Shown here piece by piece: positions 3,973-24,053 of a stretch of DNA of 64,000 nucleotides. The position numbers and the translations under genes were made by a program. Under the pieces are notes generated by a model. The model did no database searches. It saw nothing but the letters and a program-made list of their open reading frames with translations, and was not told the origin of the DNA. The stretch comes from Escherichia phage BF17: the sequence record MW822008.1. One strand, given 5' to 3'. Each line of letters opens with the position of its first letter. Positions within the stretch are counted from its first letter, which is position 1.

Positions 3973-4766
3973 TGCCAAGTAAAAGTAAAAGCCAAGCGAA
4001 ATTCTTCGCTGCTGCTGCCCATAATCCTGAATTCGCCAAAAAAGCAGGGATTTCACAAAGTGCAGCAAAAGAGTGGAATGCAGCCGATGAAAAAGAGGGA
4101 AATCTTAAGAAAGGTTCAAAACTCCCTAATAAAGTAAAAGAATCTAGTATGCGTGGTTTGGTTGATATTGTACAAGATGCAGAATTAGCTGATACAGAAG
4201 ACAGAACTAGTGATATAATGGATTCATGTGAAGAAGACCATAAAGAGAAATTGGAAGAAATGCCACAACGTTTCGATAGTTTCCAAGGCCAAGACCGTGA
4301 CGAGTTCGTTGACAAAACTGCCGAGATGACAGGTAAGCACAACATGGTTAAGTTCGCAGAACACAAAGATTATGATGTGTTTATGAATAAGAATGGTACT
4401 GGGTTTATTGCCTATGATAAAGCGGGTAAACAGCTTGCTATCGTTAGTGGACATTTGTCGAATGATGCAGTGGTTGGTGTACCACAAGTGTTTGAGATTT
4501 CTGCTACGGCCTCTAAAACTGGCACTAAAGGTATCATCTATAATATCTTTATGGATATGGTTTCTCATGGTATTAAAGTACTAAGTGACAGTCTTCACAC
4601 AGATGATGCAATTAAATTCTGGACCCGATTGATTGGTTCACACCAAGTCTACATTGTGGGTGGTGGTGAAGTACTGGCTAAGGCTAGTCCAGAGAAGGTT
4701 CACAAGTACTGGAGTGATGATGAATTTAGTCCTAGTGCTGAATTACAATTACTTCTGGTAAAATAA
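3972..4766 (+). CDS. hypothetical protein
   Basis: ORF track; ATG overlaps upstream stop (taATGcc). Confidence 0.55.
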
Positions 4767-4865: not shown

Positions 4866-6830
4866 ATGGCTAAGAAAGAAAGTGCTGTTCTTCAGGAACA
4901 TGATGTACAACGTCTAAACGATTATCAACATGCTCGCTTACGTACTGAGATGTATCTGGGTTCACGTTCTGTTCACGAAAGTCAAGTACTGATCTTTGGT
5001 GAGTCTGGATATGAAGTTAAAAACGTTGAGTGGGTTCCTGCAATTCTAACTGCTACTCGTGAAATTATCGATAACAGCTTAGATGAATTTAAAAAAGCTG
5101 GAACAAAAGAGCCAGTACTCAAAGTTGATTTCAATGAAGAAGAGTTATCCTTTGAGATCAGTGATAATGGTCGTGGTATTCCAATTGACTATGTTCCTGA
5201 GTATCAGAAAAATCTATGTACAATGGTAATGACTGAAACTAAAACTGGTCGCAACTTTGATGACTCGAAGCGTGATGAAACAATCGGTCAGAATGGATTG
5301 GGTGGTTCAGTTGCAATGATTGTAAGTTCTAAAGCTGAACTTGAAATCCATCGCCAAGGTCGCCCGTATAAAACACAAAGTAGCAATGACGGATATGACG
5401 GTTTTTATAAGTTCAATCAGAAGTTCGAAGAAGGAACTATTATGTTTCCTGAACTTCATGTACATGAACCAACTATTCGTAAGGTTCAAGCAGATAAGAC
5501 TGGAACAACAATTCGCTTCACTCTGAGTTCTGAGGTATTTCCTAACCGTAAACTGCCAACCGAATTGTTATACAGTATTTTGAAAGAAATGTCTGCTGCT
5601 AACCCTACCTATAAGATTTTCCTTAACGGTAAGCGTATTGCAATTAAAGGAACTACTGAAAAAGCACTATTCAACGCATCTAAACTGATGCAATTGAACG
5701 TTAAAGATGAATCATTCAACTTTAACAGTACTTTCTACATTGTTCCTAATGCAGTATCGGGTATGAACAATAACTTCCATATGCATGGTTTGGTTAACAA
5801 TGCCCCAGCATTTGATGGTGGTACACATCTTGATACATTCAAGAAATTCTTCTCATTAGGAGTAGGAACTGCTCTAGAGAAAGAATCAAAGAAACGCAAG
5901 ATGAAACCTAACCGCTCTGATATTGAAGAAGGTCTGTTGATTTATAACGTAACAACGATGAAAGCACCATCATTCAACTCACAGATTAAATCAAAACTAA
6001 CCAACGAAAACGTTATTCGTCCAATTCAACAAGCGATGAATTCTGAATGGTTCGATGAATTAGTCAAGAAGAACAAAGAGTGGATTGATGAAATTTTTGA
6101 ACGCTGTGCTGCTCGTACCAACAAGAAAGATGCAGAAGAAGATCGCCGTCTAGCTAAAAAACTACTGAAAGGTAAAGTTGCAAAACTATTGGACAGTACA
6201 GGTACGGATCGTTCCAAATGCATCCTACTAATTGCTGAGGGTGATTCTGCTATTTCCAACATGGCGAGTGCTCGTGATCCTAAAGTTCATGGTATTCTAC
6301 CATTGCGTGGTAAAATTATGAACGTCAGTGGTAATGAGAAAACCAAAGAATTAATGGATTCAATGGCATTGCATGATATAATGGCGAGTATCAACCTGAT
6401 TCCTGGTGTAAAAGCGGAAAGAGCAGACCTTAACTATGGTAAGCTTTATATCTGTGCCGATGAAGATGAGGATGGAAAGAACATTGGTGCTTTAGTATGT
6501 AACTTCCTATACAAATTCTGGCCTGAACTATTCCAAGACCCAGAGAATCCATTTGTGTATATATTCAAAACACCATTCATCATTCTAGAGAAAGGTAAGG
6601 AATCCAAGTACTACTATGGTCATGATGTACATGAATACAACCCAGATGATTGGAAAGGTTGGAAAGCAACCCGTGCGAAAGGATTGGGTACGTTAGAAAA
6701 AGCAAACTTCCGTGATGCATTCACTAACAGTGTTACAGTAGCGATCACTGATGATGGACGTCTTGGTGAAACACTTGATTTGATTTTCAACAAGAAACGT
6801 GCAGATGATCGTAAGAACTGGATGGAATAA
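4866..6830 (+). CDS. 39: DNA topoisomerase II large subunit (GyrB-like ATPase plus Toprim; T4 gp39 and gp60 equivalent as a single ORF)
   Basis: GHKL box ISDNGRGIP; Toprim LLIAEGDSAISNMASARDPKVHGILPLRGKIMNV; ICADEDEDGKNIG. Confidence 0.85.
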   Translation: MAKKESAVLQEHDVQRLNDYQHARLRTEMYLGSRSVHESQVLIFGESGYEVKNVEWVPAILTATREIIDNSLDEFKKAGTKEPVLKVDFNEEELSFEISDNGRGIPIDYVPEYQKNLCTMVMTETKTGRNFDDSKRDETIGQNGLGGSVAMIVSSKAELEIHRQGRPYKTQSSNDGYDGFYKFNQKFEEGTIMFPELHVHEPTIRKVQADKTGTTIRFTLSSEVFPNRKLPTELLYSILKEMSAANPTYKIFLNGKRIAIKGTTEKALFNASKLMQLNVKDESFNFNSTFYIVPNAVSGMNNNFHMHGLVNNAPAFDGGTHLDTFKKFFSLGVGTALEKESKKRKMKPNRSDIEEGLLIYNVTTMKAPSFNSQIKSKLTNENVIRPIQQAMNSEWFDELVKKNKEWIDEIFERCAARTNKKDAEEDRRLAKKLLKGKVAKLLDSTGTDRSKCILLIAEGDSAISNMASARDPKVHGILPLRGKIMNVSGNEKTKELMDSMALHDIMASINLIPGVKAERADLNYGKLYICADEDEDGKNIGALVCNFLYKFWPELFQDPENPFVYIFKTPFIILEKGKESKYYYGHDVHEYNPDDWKGWKATRAKGLGTLEKANFRDAFTNSVTVAITDDGRLGETLDLIFNKKRADDRKNWME

Positions 6831-6841
6831 TATAGATTAAT

Positions 6842-6864
6842 GGGGAACATGGTGTTCCCCTTTT
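6842..6864 (+). terminator. rho-independent terminator
   Basis: ggggaacatggtgttcccc hairpin plus TTTT. Confidence 0.7.
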
Positions 6865-6880
6865 ACAAAGAGACAATGGA

Positions 6881-8293
6881 ATGGCTAAAAGTAAAAAAAC
6901 CGAAAATCAAAGCATCGATAACCAAACACTAACTCTACTAGATTATAACAGTTCTGATTATGTGAATACCACATCACTAGAATATTCAATGTACACACTA
7001 GACCGTGCAATCCCTGGGATTGATGGCCTTAAGAGTTCACAGCGTAAAGCAATCTTCACCCTCTCAAAAGTTAGTGGTGAAATCAAAACTGTATCATGTG
7101 CTGGTAAAATGATTAGTGATGGTATCTATCTACACGGTGATACATCTGCATCTGGTACTCTTCAGAACCTAGCATCACCAGTCGTAAACAACTACCCACT
7201 CATTGGTAAACGTGGTGGTTTTGGTACACAAGTAAACAGTACTCCAGCTTCTGCTCGTTATACTTATGTTAAAAAGAATAAAAGTACTGAAATGTTAGTA
7301 CTGCGTGACTCTGACATTATTCCAATGAAAGAGAACTATGATGGTACTACAATGGAACCAAGTTTCTTTTTACCTATTATCCCACTATCTTTGTTTGGTA
7401 ACGATAGTATGTCAGTAGGTTATAAGAGTACAATTCTACCACATAAGATTGAAGATGTTATTGATAACTGTATTCGTGCTATTGATAAAAAACCATTAAA
7501 AGAAATGACTCCATACTATGTTTCATGTGGTGCAAGTGATATCGTAACTAAGCTTGATGAAAACAAATATGAGTTCTATGGTAAAGCACAAGTAATTGAT
7601 GCCAGTACTGTTAAAGTAACAGGTCTACCACCTAACTACAGTATTGAGAAATTCATCGAGAAACTCATTAAGATGAGCGATGATGGTGATATTCGTGATT
7701 ATGATAATGATAGTACTGATGTTATTGATATTACAATCAAATTGCCACGCGGAACATCTGCTAAATGGGTGGAGAAAGATGTAATTGAATACTTTGGCAT
7801 TCATAAGAAGATGACACAAATCCTAACTGTTCTAGGTGAGAATGGTAAGGTTAAAGTCTATGATAACACAATGGATTTGATTAAGGACTTTGTTGAATTC
7901 CGTTTCAAATACTATGTGAAACGCTATGAGAAGAAACTTGATGATTGTGCTGCTGAAGTACGTTATAAGATTCTAATCAAAGAATGTTTTGATAATGATA
8001 TGATTGCTAAGGTTAAGGGTTTTGCTAACCGTTCAGAAATGGTTGAGTTTGTTAAATCATTAAACACTGAAATCGAAGCAACCGATGAGAATATTCAAAG
8101 CATCGTAAACTTCCCATCATATCGTTGGACCCAAGACAATTATCAATCAGTACTAGCTGATATTCAACATAACTTGGATTTAATGGATGAATATAACAAT
8201 CTCCTGTCGAATCATGATTTGATTTGGAACATCTATAAAGATGAGTTGAAAGAACTACGTAAGATTGACTTCACGCCAAAAACTGAAGATTGA
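6881..8293 (+). CDS. 52: DNA topoisomerase II medium subunit (GyrA-like breakage-reunion domain; T4 gp52-like)
   Basis: N-terminal YSMYTLDRAIPGIDGLKSSQRKAIF resembles GyrA [24 protein letters not shown]; follows gp39-like gene. Confidence 0.75.
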   Translation: MAKSKKTENQSIDNQTLTLLDYNSSDYVNTTSLEYSMYTLDRAIPGIDGLKSSQRKAIFTLSKVSGEIKTVSCAGKMISDGIYLHGDTSASGTLQNLASPVVNNYPLIGKRGGFGTQVNSTPASARYTYVKKNKSTEMLVLRDSDIIPMKENYDGTTMEPSFFLPIIPLSLFGNDSMSVGYKSTILPHKIEDVIDNCIRAIDKKPLKEMTPYYVSCGASDIVTKLDENKYEFYGKAQVIDASTVKVTGLPPNYSIEKFIEKLIKMSDDGDIRDYDNDSTDVIDITIKLPRGTSAKWVEKDVIEYFGIHKKMTQILTVLGENGKVKVYDNTMDLIKDFVEFRFKYYVKRYEKKLDDCAAEVRYKILIKECFDNDMIAKVKGFANRSEMVEFVKSLNTEIEATDENIQSIVNFPSYRWTQDNYQSVLADIQHNLDLMDEYNNLLSNHDLIWNIYKDELKELRKIDFTPKTED

Positions 8294-18854: not shown

Positions 18855-18905
18855 TTGACACAAGAGTGCGTTTTCAATATAATGTTCTTATTGAAACGCA
18901 CTCTT
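18855..18905 (+). promoter_or_regulatory. promoter embedded in stem-loop (PeSL-like: promoter and terminator hairpin combined)
   Basis: ttgaca 18855-18860 and tataat 18878-18883 inside inverted repeat agagtgcgttttcaa...ttgaaacgcactct followed by T-run. Confidence 0.55.
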
Positions 18906-21271: not shown

Positions 21272-21280
21272 TCTAAATCT

Positions 21281-21305
21281 GGGAGTACATTGTACTCCCA
21301 TTTTC
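21281..21305 (+). terminator. rho-independent terminator
   Basis: gggagtacattgtactccc hairpin plus TTTT. Confidence 0.7.
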
Positions 21306-21318
21306 TATAGGATTTATT

Positions 21319-21906
21319 ATGTTTTTAAAAAATACTTATGAATTAATTAAAATGCTTCAAAATATGAATTTCGGTGGTCTATTCCCGTATCACTCTGAGG
21401 ATAAAACTCATCGTTTAGTTTTGAAATTGGATGAAACTGGGCGTATTGCATCACTAAGAACGGCTGTTCCAAATATGGATCAAGTAATTATGCCAACAAC
21501 TCCGAATTCAGGAACTGCTGTTAATACACCACAAACATATAACTCAAACTACCAACACCCACAGATGTATACGATTAGTACTCCATCTATTACAAGAGTT
21601 GCTTGTATTGTTACTATAAAAGTATCAAAAGACTATCGTGATTTAATATCAGTTGAATGGTCGGAACTAACATCAGCATTTGCAAACAATGGGCTTGTTG
21701 TAACAAATGCTGGTATAGCAGTCAATGCAAAAGAAGGACAACAGATAATGAGTGCGTTGTATCTTAGCAATGGTTATGTTATCATTAATGGGAAGTTGTA
21801 TTGTAACACCGAACCAGAAGCACTCACTGAAGATTTGATTAGTGAAAAAGAATATAGTCTTCTTGAAATTATGAATTTAAAAAAGGTATATGAAAACTGT
21901 GATTAG
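21319..21906 (+). CDS. hypothetical protein
   Basis: ORF track. Confidence 0.5.
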   Translation: MFLKNTYELIKMLQNMNFGGLFPYHSEDKTHRLVLKLDETGRIASLRTAVPNMDQVIMPTTPNSGTAVNTPQTYNSNYQHPQMYTISTPSITRVACIVTIKVSKDYRDLISVEWSELTSAFANNGLVVTNAGIAVNAKEGQQIMSALYLSNGYVIINGKLYCNTEPEALTEDLISEKEYSLLEIMNLKKVYENCD

Positions 21907-22474
21907 ATTTGATCAAGACGATTTGCCATTTATCCAAGAACTAGAAGAACTAGTTACGGTAACGATGCAAGAAATTAGTTCATGGGATATAACAGTTTTT
22001 AGGAACGTATATGATAAAATCACAAACTTTAAAACTGTTAATATTGAGGTAAAACACAATAACTTTTACTTAACAAAAGAATTCATTCTAAAAAGACCAG
22101 GAACGATCCAACCGAAACGTAATTTGTCTTTTGCTCAAGTTCTCGGTGCTAAGACAAGGAATGATGATGATTTGAATGAATCAATATATTCGTATATTAA
22201 AGAGCGTTCTCCTGATGTTAAGAAGAGATATTACCTTTGTGTTACATTTGATGAACAAGGAAAACTAAATGCGTATTCTATAAATTCATCAGCACACGTC
22301 CCATTACATTCAACGTCAATTGGTGATAAACAATTACTAATCGATTCATCAACATGGCATAATAGGGAAAATTTTGCCACTGAAACTTTTCAGTACTCGG
22401 TATCTGAACCAAAGTCTCCATTTGATTTTGTGTTTGTTAATAACATCCTTTTACGTTTTGGGGTAGGAGTCTAA
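21890..22474 (+). CDS. hypothetical protein
   Basis: ORF track. Confidence 0.45.
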   Translation: MKTVIRFDQDDLPFIQELEELVTVTMQEISSWDITVFRNVYDKITNFKTVNIEVKHNNFYLTKEFILKRPGTIQPKRNLSFAQVLGAKTRNDDDLNESIYSYIKERSPDVKKRYYLCVTFDEQGKLNAYSINSSAHVPLHSTSIGDKQLLIDSSTWHNRENFATETFQYSVSEPKSPFDFVFVNNILLRFGVGV

Positions 22475-22476
22475 AT

Positions 22477-22830
22477 ATGCTAATTTATTTGAGTGTTCTT
22501 GTTATTTCATTACTGGTATCATTAGCAGTACTGAAAGTTGTTGCTATCGGTCGTAGTAAAATTGATAGTACTGAAACCAGTTCTGTGTTGGACCTAATTA
22601 TGGATCATCCAAAGATCTGTACTGGGATTGTTGTGTTTGTTCTTCTTATAGGAACATTCATTGTACGTACACATTTATACAATATGTATGACTGTAGTGT
22701 TCGTTCAATTTCTCAGGGTGTTGAAACCGACTATAGCTGGTACTATGAGAAATGTCGCTTCAAAAACCAGCATGGTATTTGGGTTGATTTTGATAAACTG
22801 CGTGGCACACCATCTGGTGAAGAAGAGTAA
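22477..22830 (+). CDS. small membrane protein
   Basis: Two hydrophobic helices. Confidence 0.5.
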   Translation: MLIYLSVLVISLLVSLAVLKVVAIGRSKIDSTETSSVLDLIMDHPKICTGIVVFVLLIGTFIVRTHLYNMYDCSVRSISQGVETDYSWYYEKCRFKNQHGIWVDFDKLRGTPSGEEE

Positions 22831-22832
22831 TT

Positions 22833-23324
22833 ATGTTTGAATTTCCTGAAGAGTCATTTAACTATATTGACCCTACTGATGATGGATACAGACATATTAA
22901 TATCTATAGTAAAGCTAAGACTAAGTTAGGTAGGGATCTATCTAACTTTTCTTCACATAGTTTTACCTTAGAACCATATGGTTGGTTCCCATCGGTAGAA
23001 ACTTTTTATTTTTGGTTTTTAACAGGCCAGAAACATGATGATCTTAGAAAAGTGTCGGGTGCTGCTGCAAAAGCAGCGGCGAACAAGTATATGCACGACC
23101 GTATTGAAATGACACCCGAATGCATTTCTTGTATACAGGATGCAATATGTGCTAAGATATTTCAAAACCCAGAACTTGCTGAACGATTGAGGAAAAGTAA
23201 GTTACCCTTCTATCATTACTATGTTTATGGTGGGAAGGTGGTTGATGTATCTGATGAACATGACTGGTTTGTTAAAACATTCGAAGATATAAGAATTGTT
23301 TTGAAGGAGAACCACAATGAGTAA
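22833..23324 (+). CDS. NADAR (DUF1768)-like protein, candidate ADP-ribose processing enzyme
   Basis: LSNFSSHSF, FPSVETFY, KIFQNPELAERLRKS resemble the YbiA/NADAR family. Confidence 0.4.
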   Translation: MFEFPEESFNYIDPTDDGYRHINIYSKAKTKLGRDLSNFSSHSFTLEPYGWFPSVETFYFWFLTGQKHDDLRKVSGAAAKAAANKYMHDRIEMTPECISCIQDAICAKIFQNPELAERLRKSKLPFYHYYVYGGKVVDVSDEHDWFVKTFEDIRIVLKENHNE

Positions 23325-23595
23325 ATGTTGGGTATGTTGTAAGCAATTCGATGAAGATTATATTATTTCTTTGGATGTATTACCACAACAATACATGATA
23401 TCTTCAGGGAAATATAAACTAGATACAGTTCCAACACCTAAGTATATGGGGATTTGTCCATTGTGTAATGGGAATGGTGTATCGAATGAAGTTGTTGCAT
23501 TCACAAATACACAAACTACTGATTGTGTCGCCGAATATATAAGAAAGAATCTGGCTTTTTTCACTAGGAGATTATATGAACGAGAGAATCTTTAA
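23317..23595 (+). CDS. zinc-ribbon small protein
   Basis: CWVCC ... CPLCNG cysteine pairs. Confidence 0.45.
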   Translation: MSKCWVCCKQFDEDYIISLDVLPQQYMISSGKYKLDTVPTPKYMGICPLCNGNGVSNEVVAFTNTQTTDCVAEYIRKNLAFFTRRLYERENL

Positions 23596-23812
23596 TTCAT
23601 ATGATATGGAAGATTTACTAATACCATCTGATAACAGTACTGTTAAAATGCAAATGTATTGGTTAGTAAAAGATGGCAAGGTATTCCAGCACAAAGTTAC
23701 AAAAGTATGGCAATGTAATAAAAACAAATCTATAGTTGATGCACTCGCAACTGCATTTCCTGGGGTAGAGGTTGTATTTTTACCATTTGCCTACATTAAG
23801 GAAATAAAATGA
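23576..23812 (+). CDS. hypothetical small protein
   Basis: ORF track. Confidence 0.45.
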   Translation: MNERIFNSYDMEDLLIPSDNSTVKMQMYWLVKDGKVFQHKVTKVWQCNKNKSIVDALATAFPGVEVVFLPFAYIKEIK

Positions 23813-23954
23813 AAAAACATGGACAATATTCGTAATACCTACTATAATGTTGTTATTGTCACTTACGGTCCCACAAGGAAATAAAATGAAAAAAACATTG
23901 ACAATATTCGTAATACCTACTATAATGTTGTTATTGTCACTTACGGTCCCGCAA
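23800..23954. repeat. tandem direct duplication (~77 bp x 2) carrying a promoter
   Basis: Unit ggaaataaaatgaaaaaacatggacaatattcgtaatacctactataatgttgttattgtcacttacggtccc repeated back-to-back with 2-3 differences. Confidence 0.8.
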
Positions 23955-24053
23955 GGGCATGTTGTGGCACTGAATGTAGTAGAAATTATTCTTCTTGTAA
24001 TTCACTGCATTGTATGTTACTATTATGTAAAATCGGATGATAAAAAAATATGA
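23886..24053 (+). CDS. small hydrophobic protein, start uncertain
   Basis: ORF-track 23847..24053 spans repeat junction; in-frame ATGs at 23886 and 23925. Confidence 0.3.
   Translation: MKKTLTIFVIPTIMLLLSLTVPQGHVVALNVVEIILLVIHCIVCYYYVKSDDKKI
23898..23926 (+). promoter_or_regulatory. sigma70-like promoter in second repeat copy
   Basis: ttgaca 23898-23903, tataat 23921-23926; first copy has degenerate -35 (tggaca). Confidence 0.5.

Follow-up and report, generated by a model that had tools for sequence, protein, structure and literature searches.

The gene considered here lies within a stretch of 64,000 nucleotides of the jumbo coliphage Escherichia phage BF17 (MW822008.1), in the following called the window, and had been read from its letters as coding for a NADAR-like protein and as a candidate counter-defence gene against ADP-ribosylating systems. 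This raises the question whether the product is a NADAR protein at all and, if so, which substrate it would act upon. That NADAR domains serve large phages as ADPr-directed counter-measures has already been published as a general idea (PMC9503650, PMC7824862, PMC11825919), and at least one GenBank record names this ortholog NADAR; the counter-defence idea seems reasonable and is not new in kind.

Setting of the gene and family assignment

The open reading frame is exactly as the sequence-only reading had given it, a plus-strand frame of 163 codons running from ATG to TAA (Table 1). Its start codon follows 2 nt past the stop of the upstream gene (TAA 22828-22830), and its 3' end shares 8 nt with the next gene. 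Since a Shine-Dalgarno-like stretch lies inside the 3' end of the upstream gene, translational coupling is suggested. Comparison with the ortholog of ph0011 (84% nucleotide identity, 93% amino acid identity) yielded a dN/dS of 0.029, and the frame is thus maintained by selection. The plus-strand genes after the upstream hairpin are packed without gaps, so that the transcription unit probably extends from this hairpin to about position 23812. Genes for gyrase, Pol III subunits and the epsilon exonuclease are located directly upstream of the NADAR-like gene.

Among the small phage genes flanking the NADAR-like gene none had a Pfam match to ART or DarT, and around it neither a DarT, another ART, a KptA nor an RNA ligase was annotated or detected in the window (Turkey3 annotation, Pfam); within the annotated block no riboflavin genes lie nearby. 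The window contains no second NADAR according to a six-frame search with the clade HMM, the AdfN HMM and YbiA. The gene at 22477..22830, which is labelled a WWE domain gene in ph0011, had no Pfam WWE match at E<=10 in either copy, and this label was discarded as unsupported; a real WWE domain upstream would have been an attractive ADPr-binding partner.

Table 1. Features of the NADAR-like gene and its surroundings, in positions of the window.
Feature	Position	Strand	Remark
CDS, predicted NADAR-fold single-domain protein, 163 aa	22833..23324	+	ATG 22833, TAA 23322-23324
Lys-less, His-type phage clade (PHROG 652/11222)	CDS 22833..23324	+	clade assignment of the product
Purine-rich Shine-Dalgarno-like stretch GGTGAAGAAGAG	22816..22827	+	read from sequence; inside 3' end of upstream gene
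Terminator-like hairpin, upstream of the gene	21280..21300	+	consensus scan
Gapless plus-strand genes	21319..21906, 21890..22474, 22477..22830, 22833..23324, 23317..23595, 23576..23812	+	ORF coordinates
D17-K27 (DGYRHINIYSK), N-terminal motif D-G-x2-H-I-N-x-Y-S-K, strand beta1	22881..22913	+	
S37-N38-F39, SNF motif common to all NADAR classes	22941..22949	+	
Glu56, counterpart of catalytic Glu (PnNADAR E43, E. coli C7 NADAR E88, T4 AdfN E36)	22998..23000	+	
Leu63, site of canonical phosphate/adenine-binding Lys (PnNADAR K50, EcC7 K95, AdfN K43)	23019..23021	+	
Lys80 in G76-x2-A-K80, counterpart of PnNADAR K75 / EcC7 K115	23070..23072	+	
His128 in L-P-F-x-H-Y-Y, last beta-hairpin	23214..23216	+	class-defining residue
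C-terminal alpha-helix, codons 144-161	23262..23315	+	DSSP on predicted model

A search against the NADAR profile and a structure prediction had been proposed as checks of the family assignment. The profile check had a divided outcome. The curated models of Pfam (NADAR PF08719, Phage_30_3 PF08010) and NCBIfam did not match the protein at E<=10, a phmmer search of the PDB with the single protein sequence found no NADAR, and an HMM of 36 AdfN homologs detected nothing at E<=10 in a plain search of the window. Even among 27 homologs the Pfam NADAR profile found only two, reaching E=0.024, and Phage_30_3 found eight below its threshold of acceptance (best E=4.9e-4). An HMM built from the clade of the protein, searched against the PDB sequences, matched 8BAU (E=1.6e-4) and YbiA (E=4.9e-4) over profile positions 20-118 and nothing else below 0.1. 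In hhalign, the clade alignment matched 36 AdfN/gp30.3 proteins (97.2%, E=3.8e-11, 139 columns), with query positions 20-161 placed on T4 AdfN 2-152, E56 on E36 and H128 on H123. The structure prediction bore the assignment out: the AF2 model (pLDDT 90.2, pTM 0.83) shows the NADAR alpha+beta fold, in which two small beta-hairpins flank a helical core, and the top three Foldseek matches in the PDB are the sole three NADAR structures (probability >=0.99; all others <=0.06). In BFVD, clade members come first and are followed by many NADAR-annotated proteins. Taken literally, the lack of a match to the curated profiles is the outcome that the sequence-only reading had named as refuting it; the negative single-sequence searches are not taken as a refutation, because the family profile, the profile-profile comparison and the structure all gave positive results. 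Turkey3 names its ortholog NADAR, and that of Staphylococcus phage Pel53 carries the label DUF1768. We are nearly certain that the protein has the NADAR fold and belongs to the superfamily; judged from the alignments, it is a genuine NADAR-type enzyme, though a very divergent one, and stands closest to T4 AdfN.

The phage clade and its conserved residues

The clade comprises 2,106 clusters at 50% identity, is covered neither by Pfam NADAR nor by Phage_30_3, and has homologs in 502 phage records. On alignment evidence it is a previously uncharacterised phage clade, sister to the His-type NADARs of phages such as T4 (gp30.3 = AdfN). It was found in phages of Salmonella, Vibrio, Escherichia, Klebsiella and Erwinia; canonical YbiA-type NADARs occur in Staphylococcus, Streptomyces and Bacillus phages and hardly overlap with it. 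Among 86 long clade members, fusions to DUF4326 (27), YAcAr-SLOG (21), Macro (6) and DUF488-N3a (6) were found, domains that have been described as partners of NADAR in ADPr networks (PMC7824862, PMC9503650); Metallophos fusions occur as well. The polyprotein P0125 contains a canonical NADAR together with a clade domain, which suggests that the two are non-redundant and possibly differ in specificity.

Nine gene neighbourhoods of clade members were compared, including the block in the window, and no recurrent partner gene emerged. In one of the nine, a 117-kb phage contig, a 392-aa ADPrib_exo_Tox/ART gene lies 65 bp from the clade member. NAD-salvage-type genes occur at a distance in two (NadR, 3.4 kb off in FBKp24, and a CTP_transf_like gene in L020). 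The remaining neighbours are replication or DNA-metabolism genes, topoisomerase II/MazG and ligase/helicase genes among them, a setting that fits a DNA-directed function. Packaging into the virion was considered and rejected: the "virion structural protein" labels of Asteriusvirus sit on other genes, the structural label within the block of CBB belongs to a LemA-like gene and not to the NADAR-like ortholog, and the single Klebsiella phage record labelling a clade member in this way gives no evidence.

Residue conservation was counted over 176 cluster representatives of the clade. In the N-terminal motif D17 (171), G18 (175), H21 (171), N23 (176), Y25 (168) and S26 (170) are conserved, and position 27 is basic in 89%. 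The I-N-x-Y-S part is common to YbiA, where it aligns as INFYS; D17 and H21 are confined to the clade. The SNF motif aligns with LSNF of 8BAU, YbiA and T4 AdfN and has S in 156 (T in a further 20), N in 172 and F in 166 of the 176 representatives. Glu56 is present in every representative and falls on the corresponding Glu in 8BAU and YbiA and on AdfN E36; the roles of E43, E88 and E36 in PnNADAR, EcC7 and AdfN have been described (PMC11543638, PMC11825919). Of the motifs quoted in the sequence-only reading, SNF (S37-N38-F39, within LSNFS) and QNPEL (111-115) are present. The third, E..Y...K, is absent, and the reasoning from motifs was therefore partly wrong: Glu56, two residues and Tyr59 are followed by Leu63 at Glu+7, and the catalytic Lys that this motif implies is absent from the protein.

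The helix from E56 to Leu63 is aligned without gaps both to 8BAU/YbiA and to AdfN. Column 63 is composed of S43/L39/G36/K16/A14 and is basic in 17 of 176. The Glu+7 Lys has been described as "largely conserved over the superfamily", K95 being essential in EcC7 for efficient hydrolysis and for DarT1 rescue (PMC11543638); in AdfN K43 contributes, and the K43A mutant keeps partial function (PMC11825919). Since about 10% of the clade still have the Lys, this position appears to be dispensable and its loss not a sign of general decay of the active site. Lys80 (175/176) and G76 (176/176) are aligned to AVAKKLGR of 8BAU; in EcC7 the corresponding K115 is required for DarT1 rescue in vivo and dispensable in vitro (PMC11543638). 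At the counterparts of PnNADAR G78 and R79, position 83 is G in 164/176 and position 84 is basic in 72%; in the subclade of this phage A83-N84 replaces the G-R pair, which shields the pyrophosphate in PnNADAR. His128 (174/176) coincides column for column with T4 AdfN H123 and adjoins the predicted strand 129-132. NADAR classes are defined by this last-strand residue, with His in gp30.3/AdfN, Glu in YbiA and Asp in DarG1 (PMC11543638, PMC11125620). The C-terminal helix is aligned to the AdfN C-terminus by hhalign; the RB69 AdfN allele, which is truncated and misses the corresponding helix, is inactive (PMC11825919). Of the candidate compensating residues, only Lys135 is weakly anticorrelated with the Glu+7 Lys (p=0.048 in Fisher's test, 13 tests having been made without correction), a hint that it may compensate for the absent basic residue.

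Possible substrates

The protein is probably an active ADPr-processing hydrolase, and counter-defence against ADP-ribosylating systems is plausible by precedent. AdfN (T4 gp30.3) removes ADP-ribose from phage DNA and thereby defeats DarTG1; AdfN-T4, AdfN-Bas32 and AdfN-Bas60 all neutralise DarTG1, with specificity for guanine (PMC11825919). Hydrolysis of G-ADPr, on DNA as well as on RNA, has been observed for every NADAR class assayed (PMC11125620, PMC11833690, PMC12945103), and DarTG1 is present in E. coli, the host (PMC11543638). A small stand-alone NADAR enzyme would be made from the early/replication-associated gene block, early expression being expected from the gene position and sigma70-like promoters. 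Its substrate would be ADP-ribose linked N-glycosidically to a nucleobase, most probably to guanine N2, as in DarT1-type or pierisin-type marks. The bond would be hydrolysed by means of Glu56 of helix 1 and His128 of the last strand, which would hold and activate the distal ribose, while the phosphate contacts of the Glu+7 Lys may be taken over by Lys80 with the basic residues of the S-K-G-K-T-x-L-G-R loop and/or by Lys135. As a result, replication-blocking ADP-ribose would be cleared from the phage DNA, which would amount to counter-defence against DarTG1-like systems.

We regard such a guanine-directed, anti-DarT1 role as the best explanation, with a confidence that stops a little short of even. 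Against it count the absence of the Lys that is essential in EcC7, A83-N84 in place of the pyrophosphate-shielding G-R, the failure of curated profiles to find the protein, the lack of a linked DarT or ART in the window, and the pairing in P0125. Moreover, AdfN-T4 works only in its own phage context (PMC11825919), and activity is therefore not simply transferable by homology.

With the same fold and chemistry, the substrate could be a soluble ADP-ribose derivative, the N-glycosidic ribosyl linkage being that of an NAD+-made immune signal or toxin. Cyclic ADPR isomers (TIR/Thoeris-type) or ADPr-1''-phosphate-type products are candidates, and the signal would be silenced before the effector fires. 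The Aravind group has published such a prediction for most phage NADARs (PMC9503650, sections 3.4.3 and 3.7.4), and this reading agrees with the fusions to YAcAr-SLOG (21/86), DUF4326 (27/86), Macro (6/86) and Metallophos, which resemble multi-step small-molecule processing, with the different substrates implied by P0125, and with the occasional NAD-salvage neighbours. The loss of the canonical Lys and the gain of the invariant D17/H21 pair could likewise reflect a changed ligand. However, no NADAR has so far been demonstrated to act on immune signals in cyclic or soluble form, all phage NADARs assayed act on guanine-ADPr DNA (PMC11825919, PMC11125620), the protein of the window is a stand-alone domain amid replication genes, and the Macro-NADAR fusions may equally be read as dual anti-DarT2/anti-DarT1 enzymes. 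We consider a soluble substrate rather unlikely. Slightly less likely still is the broader view that the Lys-less His-type clade is a distinct enzyme with a substrate new to NADARs, e.g., an immune signal derived from ADPr, be it cyclic or linear, or ADPr carried by RNA or by adenine-N6 (CmdT), thymine or uracil.

It is improbable that the enzyme manages ADP-ribosylation of the phage's own making, i.e., marks of phage ARTs or ADPr by-products of NAD-dependent RNA repair or NAD+ turnover. For T4-like NADARs, co-expression with ARTs and a tie to RNA repair and NAD salvage have been stated (PMC9503650); in T4 itself a few genes separate 30.3 from alt, and the ART gene 65 bp from one clade member would suit such a role. 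But ART adjacency is confined to that one of nine neighbourhoods, no ART, KptA or RNA ligase surrounds the gene in the window, and Alt, ModA and ModB modify proteins or RNA, linkages for which NADAR cleavage has not been demonstrated. A degenerate NADAR which had lost efficient catalysis and served as a binder of ADP-ribose or ADPr-DNA, a shield or a decoy, appears more improbable still. The protein does lack the Lys whose mutation abolishes efficient hydrolysis in the E. coli C7 NADAR (PMC11543638), has A-N for G-R, and has Gly133 and Val136 where PnNADAR makes phosphate contacts with D130 and W133, these positions being counted from His128 by analogy with PnNADAR E125/D130/W133 and not from a residue-by-residue alignment. 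Yet E56, H128, K80, N23, D17 and H21 are near-absolute over more than 170 diverged clusters, as in an enzyme signature; T4 AdfN (H123-S-I-A-S-G128-L-T-K131) is active without the D/W pair as well (PMC11825919, PMC11125620), and partial function of AdfN K43A (PMC11825919) and retention of the Lys in about a tenth of the clade speak in the same direction. We give very little credence to a YbiA-like metabolic N-glycosidase acting on riboflavin intermediates, another ribosylated metabolite or a modified nucleotide with no link to defence. The annotation of E. coli YbiA describes an N-glycosidase that acts on riboflavin intermediates (PMC9503650), and several canonical phage NADARs are annotated as, or beside, GTP cyclohydrolase II, but the clade has His instead of the YbiA-defining Glu, riboflavin genes are absent nearby in the annotated block and the phage distributions of the two groups hardly overlap.

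If the guanine-ADPr activity is real, it would in part explain how 121Q-type jumbo coliphages, which are phage-therapy candidates, escape DarTG1-type abortive infection, and would carry the AdfN principle beyond T-even, T5-like and phi92-like phages, into jumbo phages and Ackermannviridae. Should the clade be a distinct enzyme, large myoviruses and jumbo phages would possess a new class of counter-defence activity. A large clade that has no Pfam match and passes as "hypothetical" in standard pipelines (PHROG 652/11222) can be annotated as NADAR-fold, and it offers an experiment of nature on the dispensability of the "essential" Glu+7 Lys of NADARs.

Comparison with AdfN and other known NADARs

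The DarG1 antitoxin NADARs (BC4488 family; 8BAT, E. coli C7 NADAR) carry with K115 the equivalent of Lys80, and the chemistry predicted for this protein is the same. Unlike them, it has no adjoining darT, His128 instead of Asp (EcC7 D171) and no K95, and it is about 60-70 residues shorter. With canonical NADAR/YbiA (PF08719, DUF1768; 2B3W, 8BAU) the I-N-x-Y-S strand, SNF and the catalytic Glu are held in common, as is, for most of the clade, the A-K-x2-G-R segment. The last-strand residue is His and not Glu, the Glu+7 Lys is missing, and no D-x2-W-G follows the last strand (YbiA LVE-HTEN-D-AY-WG versus FYH-YYVY-G-GK-VV here).

AdfN-Bas32 (T5-like) and AdfN-Bas60 (phi92-like) are stand-alone phage NADARs as well, and for these two anti-DarTG1 activity has been demonstrated. 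A domain-based search had brought them to light, and they reportedly group with NADARs of archaea and bacteria instead of with AdfN-T4 (PMC11825919). The first 62 kb of phi92 gave no match to the clade, AdfN or YbiA, and phi92-like or T5-like phages were not among the YbiA tblastn matches.

AdfN/gp30.3 (PF08010) is the best profile-profile match of the clade and covers the whole domain. The identity amounts to only about 19%, the Phage_30_3 model does not match, and Lys43, conserved to at least 90% in the 36-protein AdfN alignment, is replaced by Leu63. AdfN lacks the clade-specific N-terminal elaboration D-G-x2-H-I-N-x-Y-S-K-G-K-T-x-L-G-R, and whereas the clade is often fused to SLOG, DUF4326 or Macro, the AdfN homologs found are single-domain proteins. 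Like AdfN, the protein of BF17 is a phage-encoded, stand-alone protein of the same size, encoded among early or DNA-metabolism genes, with the same catalytic Glu (E56/E36), the G-x2-A-(K/Q)-x2-G segment, an intact C-terminal helix and the class-defining His of the last strand, followed after four residues by Gly (H128-YYVY-G versus H123-SIAS-G).

Genomic setting of the NADAR-like gene

The window derives from a 121Q/Asteriusvirus-type jumbo coliphage. Over a 4-kb stretch around the NADAR-like gene it shows 99.3-99.7% identity to Escherichia phages WPEC5, Ecwhy_1, fEgEco12 and Turkey3 and 83-86% identity to ph0011, SHEFM2K and relatives; the 121Q ortholog of the NADAR-like protein is 93.8% identical at the protein level. 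By synteny with the near-identical Turkey3 (L005/L006), the window span should also include genes for IF-3, a ClpS-like adapter, GroES, gyrase A/B, Pol III subunits, a cytosine methyltransferase and a sigma factor as well as a tRNA gene cluster with an HNH endonuclease in between.

The sequence-only reading had placed the ORF exactly, and it is a genuine coding gene under selection (84% DNA and 93% protein identity to the diverged ph0011 ortholog, dN/dS = 0.029). It sits among small, closely spaced genes in the same orientation. This run lies between a terminator-like hairpin and a pair of sigma70-consensus promoters, directly 3' of the replication block with its genes for gyrase, Pol III subunits and epsilon exonuclease. 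The gene starts two bases past the stop of the preceding gene, with a purine-rich stretch in front, and the two are probably translationally coupled. In ph0011 the label of this preceding gene's ortholog, 'WWE domain-containing protein', would make it an ADP-ribose binder. The label looks unsupported, as neither the window nor the ph0011 copy has a Pfam WWE match at E ≤ 10, and the sole Pfam match is a sub-threshold one to DUF6097. The product of the following gene, which overlaps the NADAR-like gene's 3' end by 8 nt, looks like a small zinc ribbon from its two Cys pairs and had no match in a Pfam search.

Further downstream, a 78-bp tandem duplication doubles a sigma70-consensus promoter and also the 5' end of an ORF for a small membrane protein that repeats 'LLLSLTVPQG'. 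In the close relatives Turkey3, WPEC3, TH47 and vB_Ec-M-J one copy is missing, and their alignment falls into two pieces (3,924 vs 4,001 bp). Within 8.5 kb, the coding strand carries two perfect sigma70 consensus promoters (TTGACA-17-TATAAT), which suggests that host RNA polymerase transcribes the small-gene block early.

Features of the window around the NADAR-like gene
Feature	Position	Strand	Remarks
Sigma70 promoter	18855-18883	+	12/12 matches
Terminator-like hairpin	21280-21300		limit of small-gene run
Preceding gene	22477-22830	+	117 aa; two hydrophobic segments, Trp/Tyr-rich tail
NADAR-like CDS	22833-23324	+	ATG 22833, stop 23322-23324; 163 aa
Following gene	23317-23595	+	92 aa; C-W-V-C-C ... 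C-P-L-C
78-bp tandem duplication	23798-23956		2.1 copies, 96% identical
Sigma70 promoter pair	23820-23926		limit of small-gene run
Pair, upstream copy	23820-23848		11/12 matches
Pair, downstream copy	23898-23926	+	12/12 matches
Small membrane-protein ORF	23847-24053
Gene with 'virion structural' ortholog	24469-24804

Fold and family assignment

The sequence-only reading had assigned the product to the NADAR family from three motifs. LSNFS (36-40) and QNPEL (111-115) are present, whereas 'E..Y...K' is absent (Glu56-Thr-Phe-Tyr59, with Leu63 at +7), which matters because E-x6-K is the most conserved residue pair across the NADAR superfamily (PMC11543638). Searches of Pfam-A and NCBIfam with the window protein returned no family at E ≤ 10; the profile check named in that reading is thus literally negative for curated Pfam/NCBIfam profiles. 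A phmmer search against the PDB gave nothing meaningful, and none of 29 homologs from a 5.8-billion-protein collection carried a precomputed NADAR call. Within PHROGs the protein falls firmly into phrog_652 (1e-45) and phrog_11222 (3.5e-31), neither of which has an assigned function.

A profile built from 27 aligned homologs and compared with all PDB sequences had only two significant matches, which span profile positions 20-118: Phytophthora NADAR (PnNADAR, 8BAU) with E = 1.6e-4 and E. coli YbiA (2B3W) with E = 4.9e-4. Structure prediction, likewise proposed as a check, bore the assignment out: the AlphaFold2 model from the same alignment was confident (pLDDT 90.2, pTM 0.83), and Foldseek placed the three existing NADAR structures on top of the PDB (probabilities 1.00, 1.00 and 0.99; all others ≤ 0.06). 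Searching a viral structure library returned members of the protein's own family, followed by a long run of proteins annotated as NADAR. GenBank independently labels Turkey3 XMR01337.1 'NADAR domain-containing protein' and a homolog from Staphylococcus phage Pel53 'DUF1768 family protein'. The window protein almost certainly has the NADAR fold and belongs to the NADAR superfamily; despite the absent motif and the failed curated-profile test, the earlier assignment was right in substance.

AdfN, the gp30.3 protein of T4, strips ADP-ribose from DNA and lets T-even phages grow on DarTG1 hosts; its residues E36 and K43 have been mutated (PMC11825919). The family of the T4 sequence was collected, with PF08010 in all members, and 36 sequences were aligned. 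Comparison with the window protein's family by hhalign gave 97.2% probability (E = 3.8e-11) over 139 columns, the whole domain, pairing Glu56, His128 and Leu63 with E36, H123 and K43 of T4 AdfN. Both proteins have H-x4-G after a strand (HYYVYG vs HSIASG). Since an ordinary HMM search with the AdfN family did not find the window protein and Pfam Phage_30_3 gave sub-threshold matches in only 8 of the 27 homologs, the window protein's family is, as judged from sequence, a separate family and sister of the His-type AdfN family. No second NADAR was found in the window.

Conservation, domain fusions and gene neighbourhoods

When 1.84 billion cluster representatives were searched exhaustively by HMM, 2,106 matched at E ≤ 1e-3, of which 685 reached E ≤ 1e-30. 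Among annotated phage genomes, homologs occur in 502 records, mainly from phages of Salmonella, Vibrio, Escherichia, Klebsiella, Erwinia and Serratia with large genomes, including jumbo phages and Ackermannviridae. Canonical YbiA-type NADARs occur in 641 records, a largely different set (Staphylococcus, Streptomyces, Vibrio and Bacillus phages).

Across 176 representative domains of the family, Glu56, Asn23, Gly33 and Gly76 are invariant (176/176 each), followed by Lys80 (175), His128 (174), Asp17 and His21 (171 each), Ser26 (170), Thr30 (169) and Tyr25 (168). The canonical lysine position (63) is variable, with Ser in 43, Leu in 39, Gly in 36, Lys in 16 and Ala in 14 domains. Lys80 aligns with PnNADAR K75 and with K115 of E. 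coli C7 NADAR, which is needed for DarT1 rescue in vivo (PMC11543638). It is followed in most of the clade by G-R (PnNADAR G78, R79; G in 164/176, second position 72% basic), in place of which the Asteriusvirus subclade has A83-N84. Lys135, in a hairpin that is the counterpart of the pyrophosphate-contacting D130/W133 region of PnNADAR, is somewhat rarer where position 63 is basic (10/17 vs 131/159; Fisher p = 0.048, uncorrected for 13 tests), a weak hint that it may compensate for the missing canonical lysine.

Family representatives longer than 200 aa number 86; the fusion partners among them are DUF4326 in 27, a YAcAr-type SLOG domain in 21, Macro and DUF488-N3a in six each, and Metallophos and an Rv2179c-like exonuclease in one each. 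The order is Macro, DUF4326 and the window family's domain in one protein (P0057) and DUF4326, the family's domain and SLOG in another (P0152). Such partners match the list that the Aravind laboratory gives for NADAR domains of viruses. A protein of 1,415 aa (P0125) combines a canonical Pfam NADAR (10-143, E = 1e-20) with the family's domain (547-698) and DUF4326 (1185-1274), a pairing of two NADAR types that points to specificities which are not redundant.

Family members are mostly surrounded by replication and DNA-metabolism genes. On a metagenome contig from ENA (L008, 116,899 bp; 6001-7678), a 144-aa member (P0020) lies 65 bp from a convergent 392-aa ADPrib_exo_Tox/ART gene, which recalls alt near gene 30.3 in T4. 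Such an adjacency was not found again in the other eight neighbourhoods, the window block included, and no DarT-like or other ART gene was found beside the window's gene. NAD-salvage-type genes occur near members in two neighbourhoods, and these links are possible ones: in Klebsiella phage FBKp24 (L014) the member (3992-4483) is followed at a distance of 3.4 kb by a NadR-type NMN adenylyltransferase/ribosylnicotinamide kinase (7877 onward), and on a 52-kb metagenomic phage contig (L020, 4378-5693) the member lies two genes past a CTP_transf_like nucleotidyltransferase. The member of the Ackermannviridae-type Klebsiella phage phi1_146021 (L019, 1468-1953) is labelled 'virion structural protein / head and packaging', with the evidence unstated; in Asteriusvirus records the virion-structural label belongs to other genes, a LemA-like gene and the ortholog of the last gene in the table.

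Proposed function and alternatives

Fold, homology and the conserved Glu, His and Lys80 positions are established for the window protein. As its best-supported function we tentatively propose that of an ADP-ribosyl N-glycohydrolase, made early, which would take ADP-ribose off guanine in phage DNA and so counter DarT1-type defence. Glu56 and His128 would form the catalytic pair, and some other residue would replace the lysine at Glu+7. Direct precedents for counter-defence against DarT1 are AdfN-T4, AdfN-Bas32 and AdfN-Bas60 (PMC11825919). Every NADAR class that has been tested hydrolyses G-ADPr, on DNA as well as on RNA, and the Asp and His classes are guanine-only (PMC11125620, PMC11833690, PMC12945103).

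The main rival comes from the literature, where phage NADARs have been proposed to act mainly by breaking down soluble ADPr-derived immune signals or toxins. This view agrees with the fusions to SLOG, DUF4326 and Macro, with the occurrence of a canonical NADAR and the window family's domain in a single polypeptide, and with the remodelling around the active site; for the window protein we consider it possible, if rather unlikely. Handling of the phage's own ADP-ribosylation or of ADPr by-products is improbable. A degenerate domain which only binds is a still poorer candidate, because polar residues are conserved almost without exception, which speaks for an enzyme and against a decayed domain, and a YbiA-like metabolic glycosidase is hardly to be expected.

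The clade has one unusual feature: it has lost the canonical lysine and carries an N-terminal motif of its own. This leaves room for a different substrate specificity, which we regard as rather unlikely and which, if true, would be more interesting. The counter-defence function suggested in the sequence-only reading matches the 2024-2025 demonstrations on related phage NADARs, and the window gene, a new candidate of this kind, belongs to a large unannotated sister clade of AdfN.
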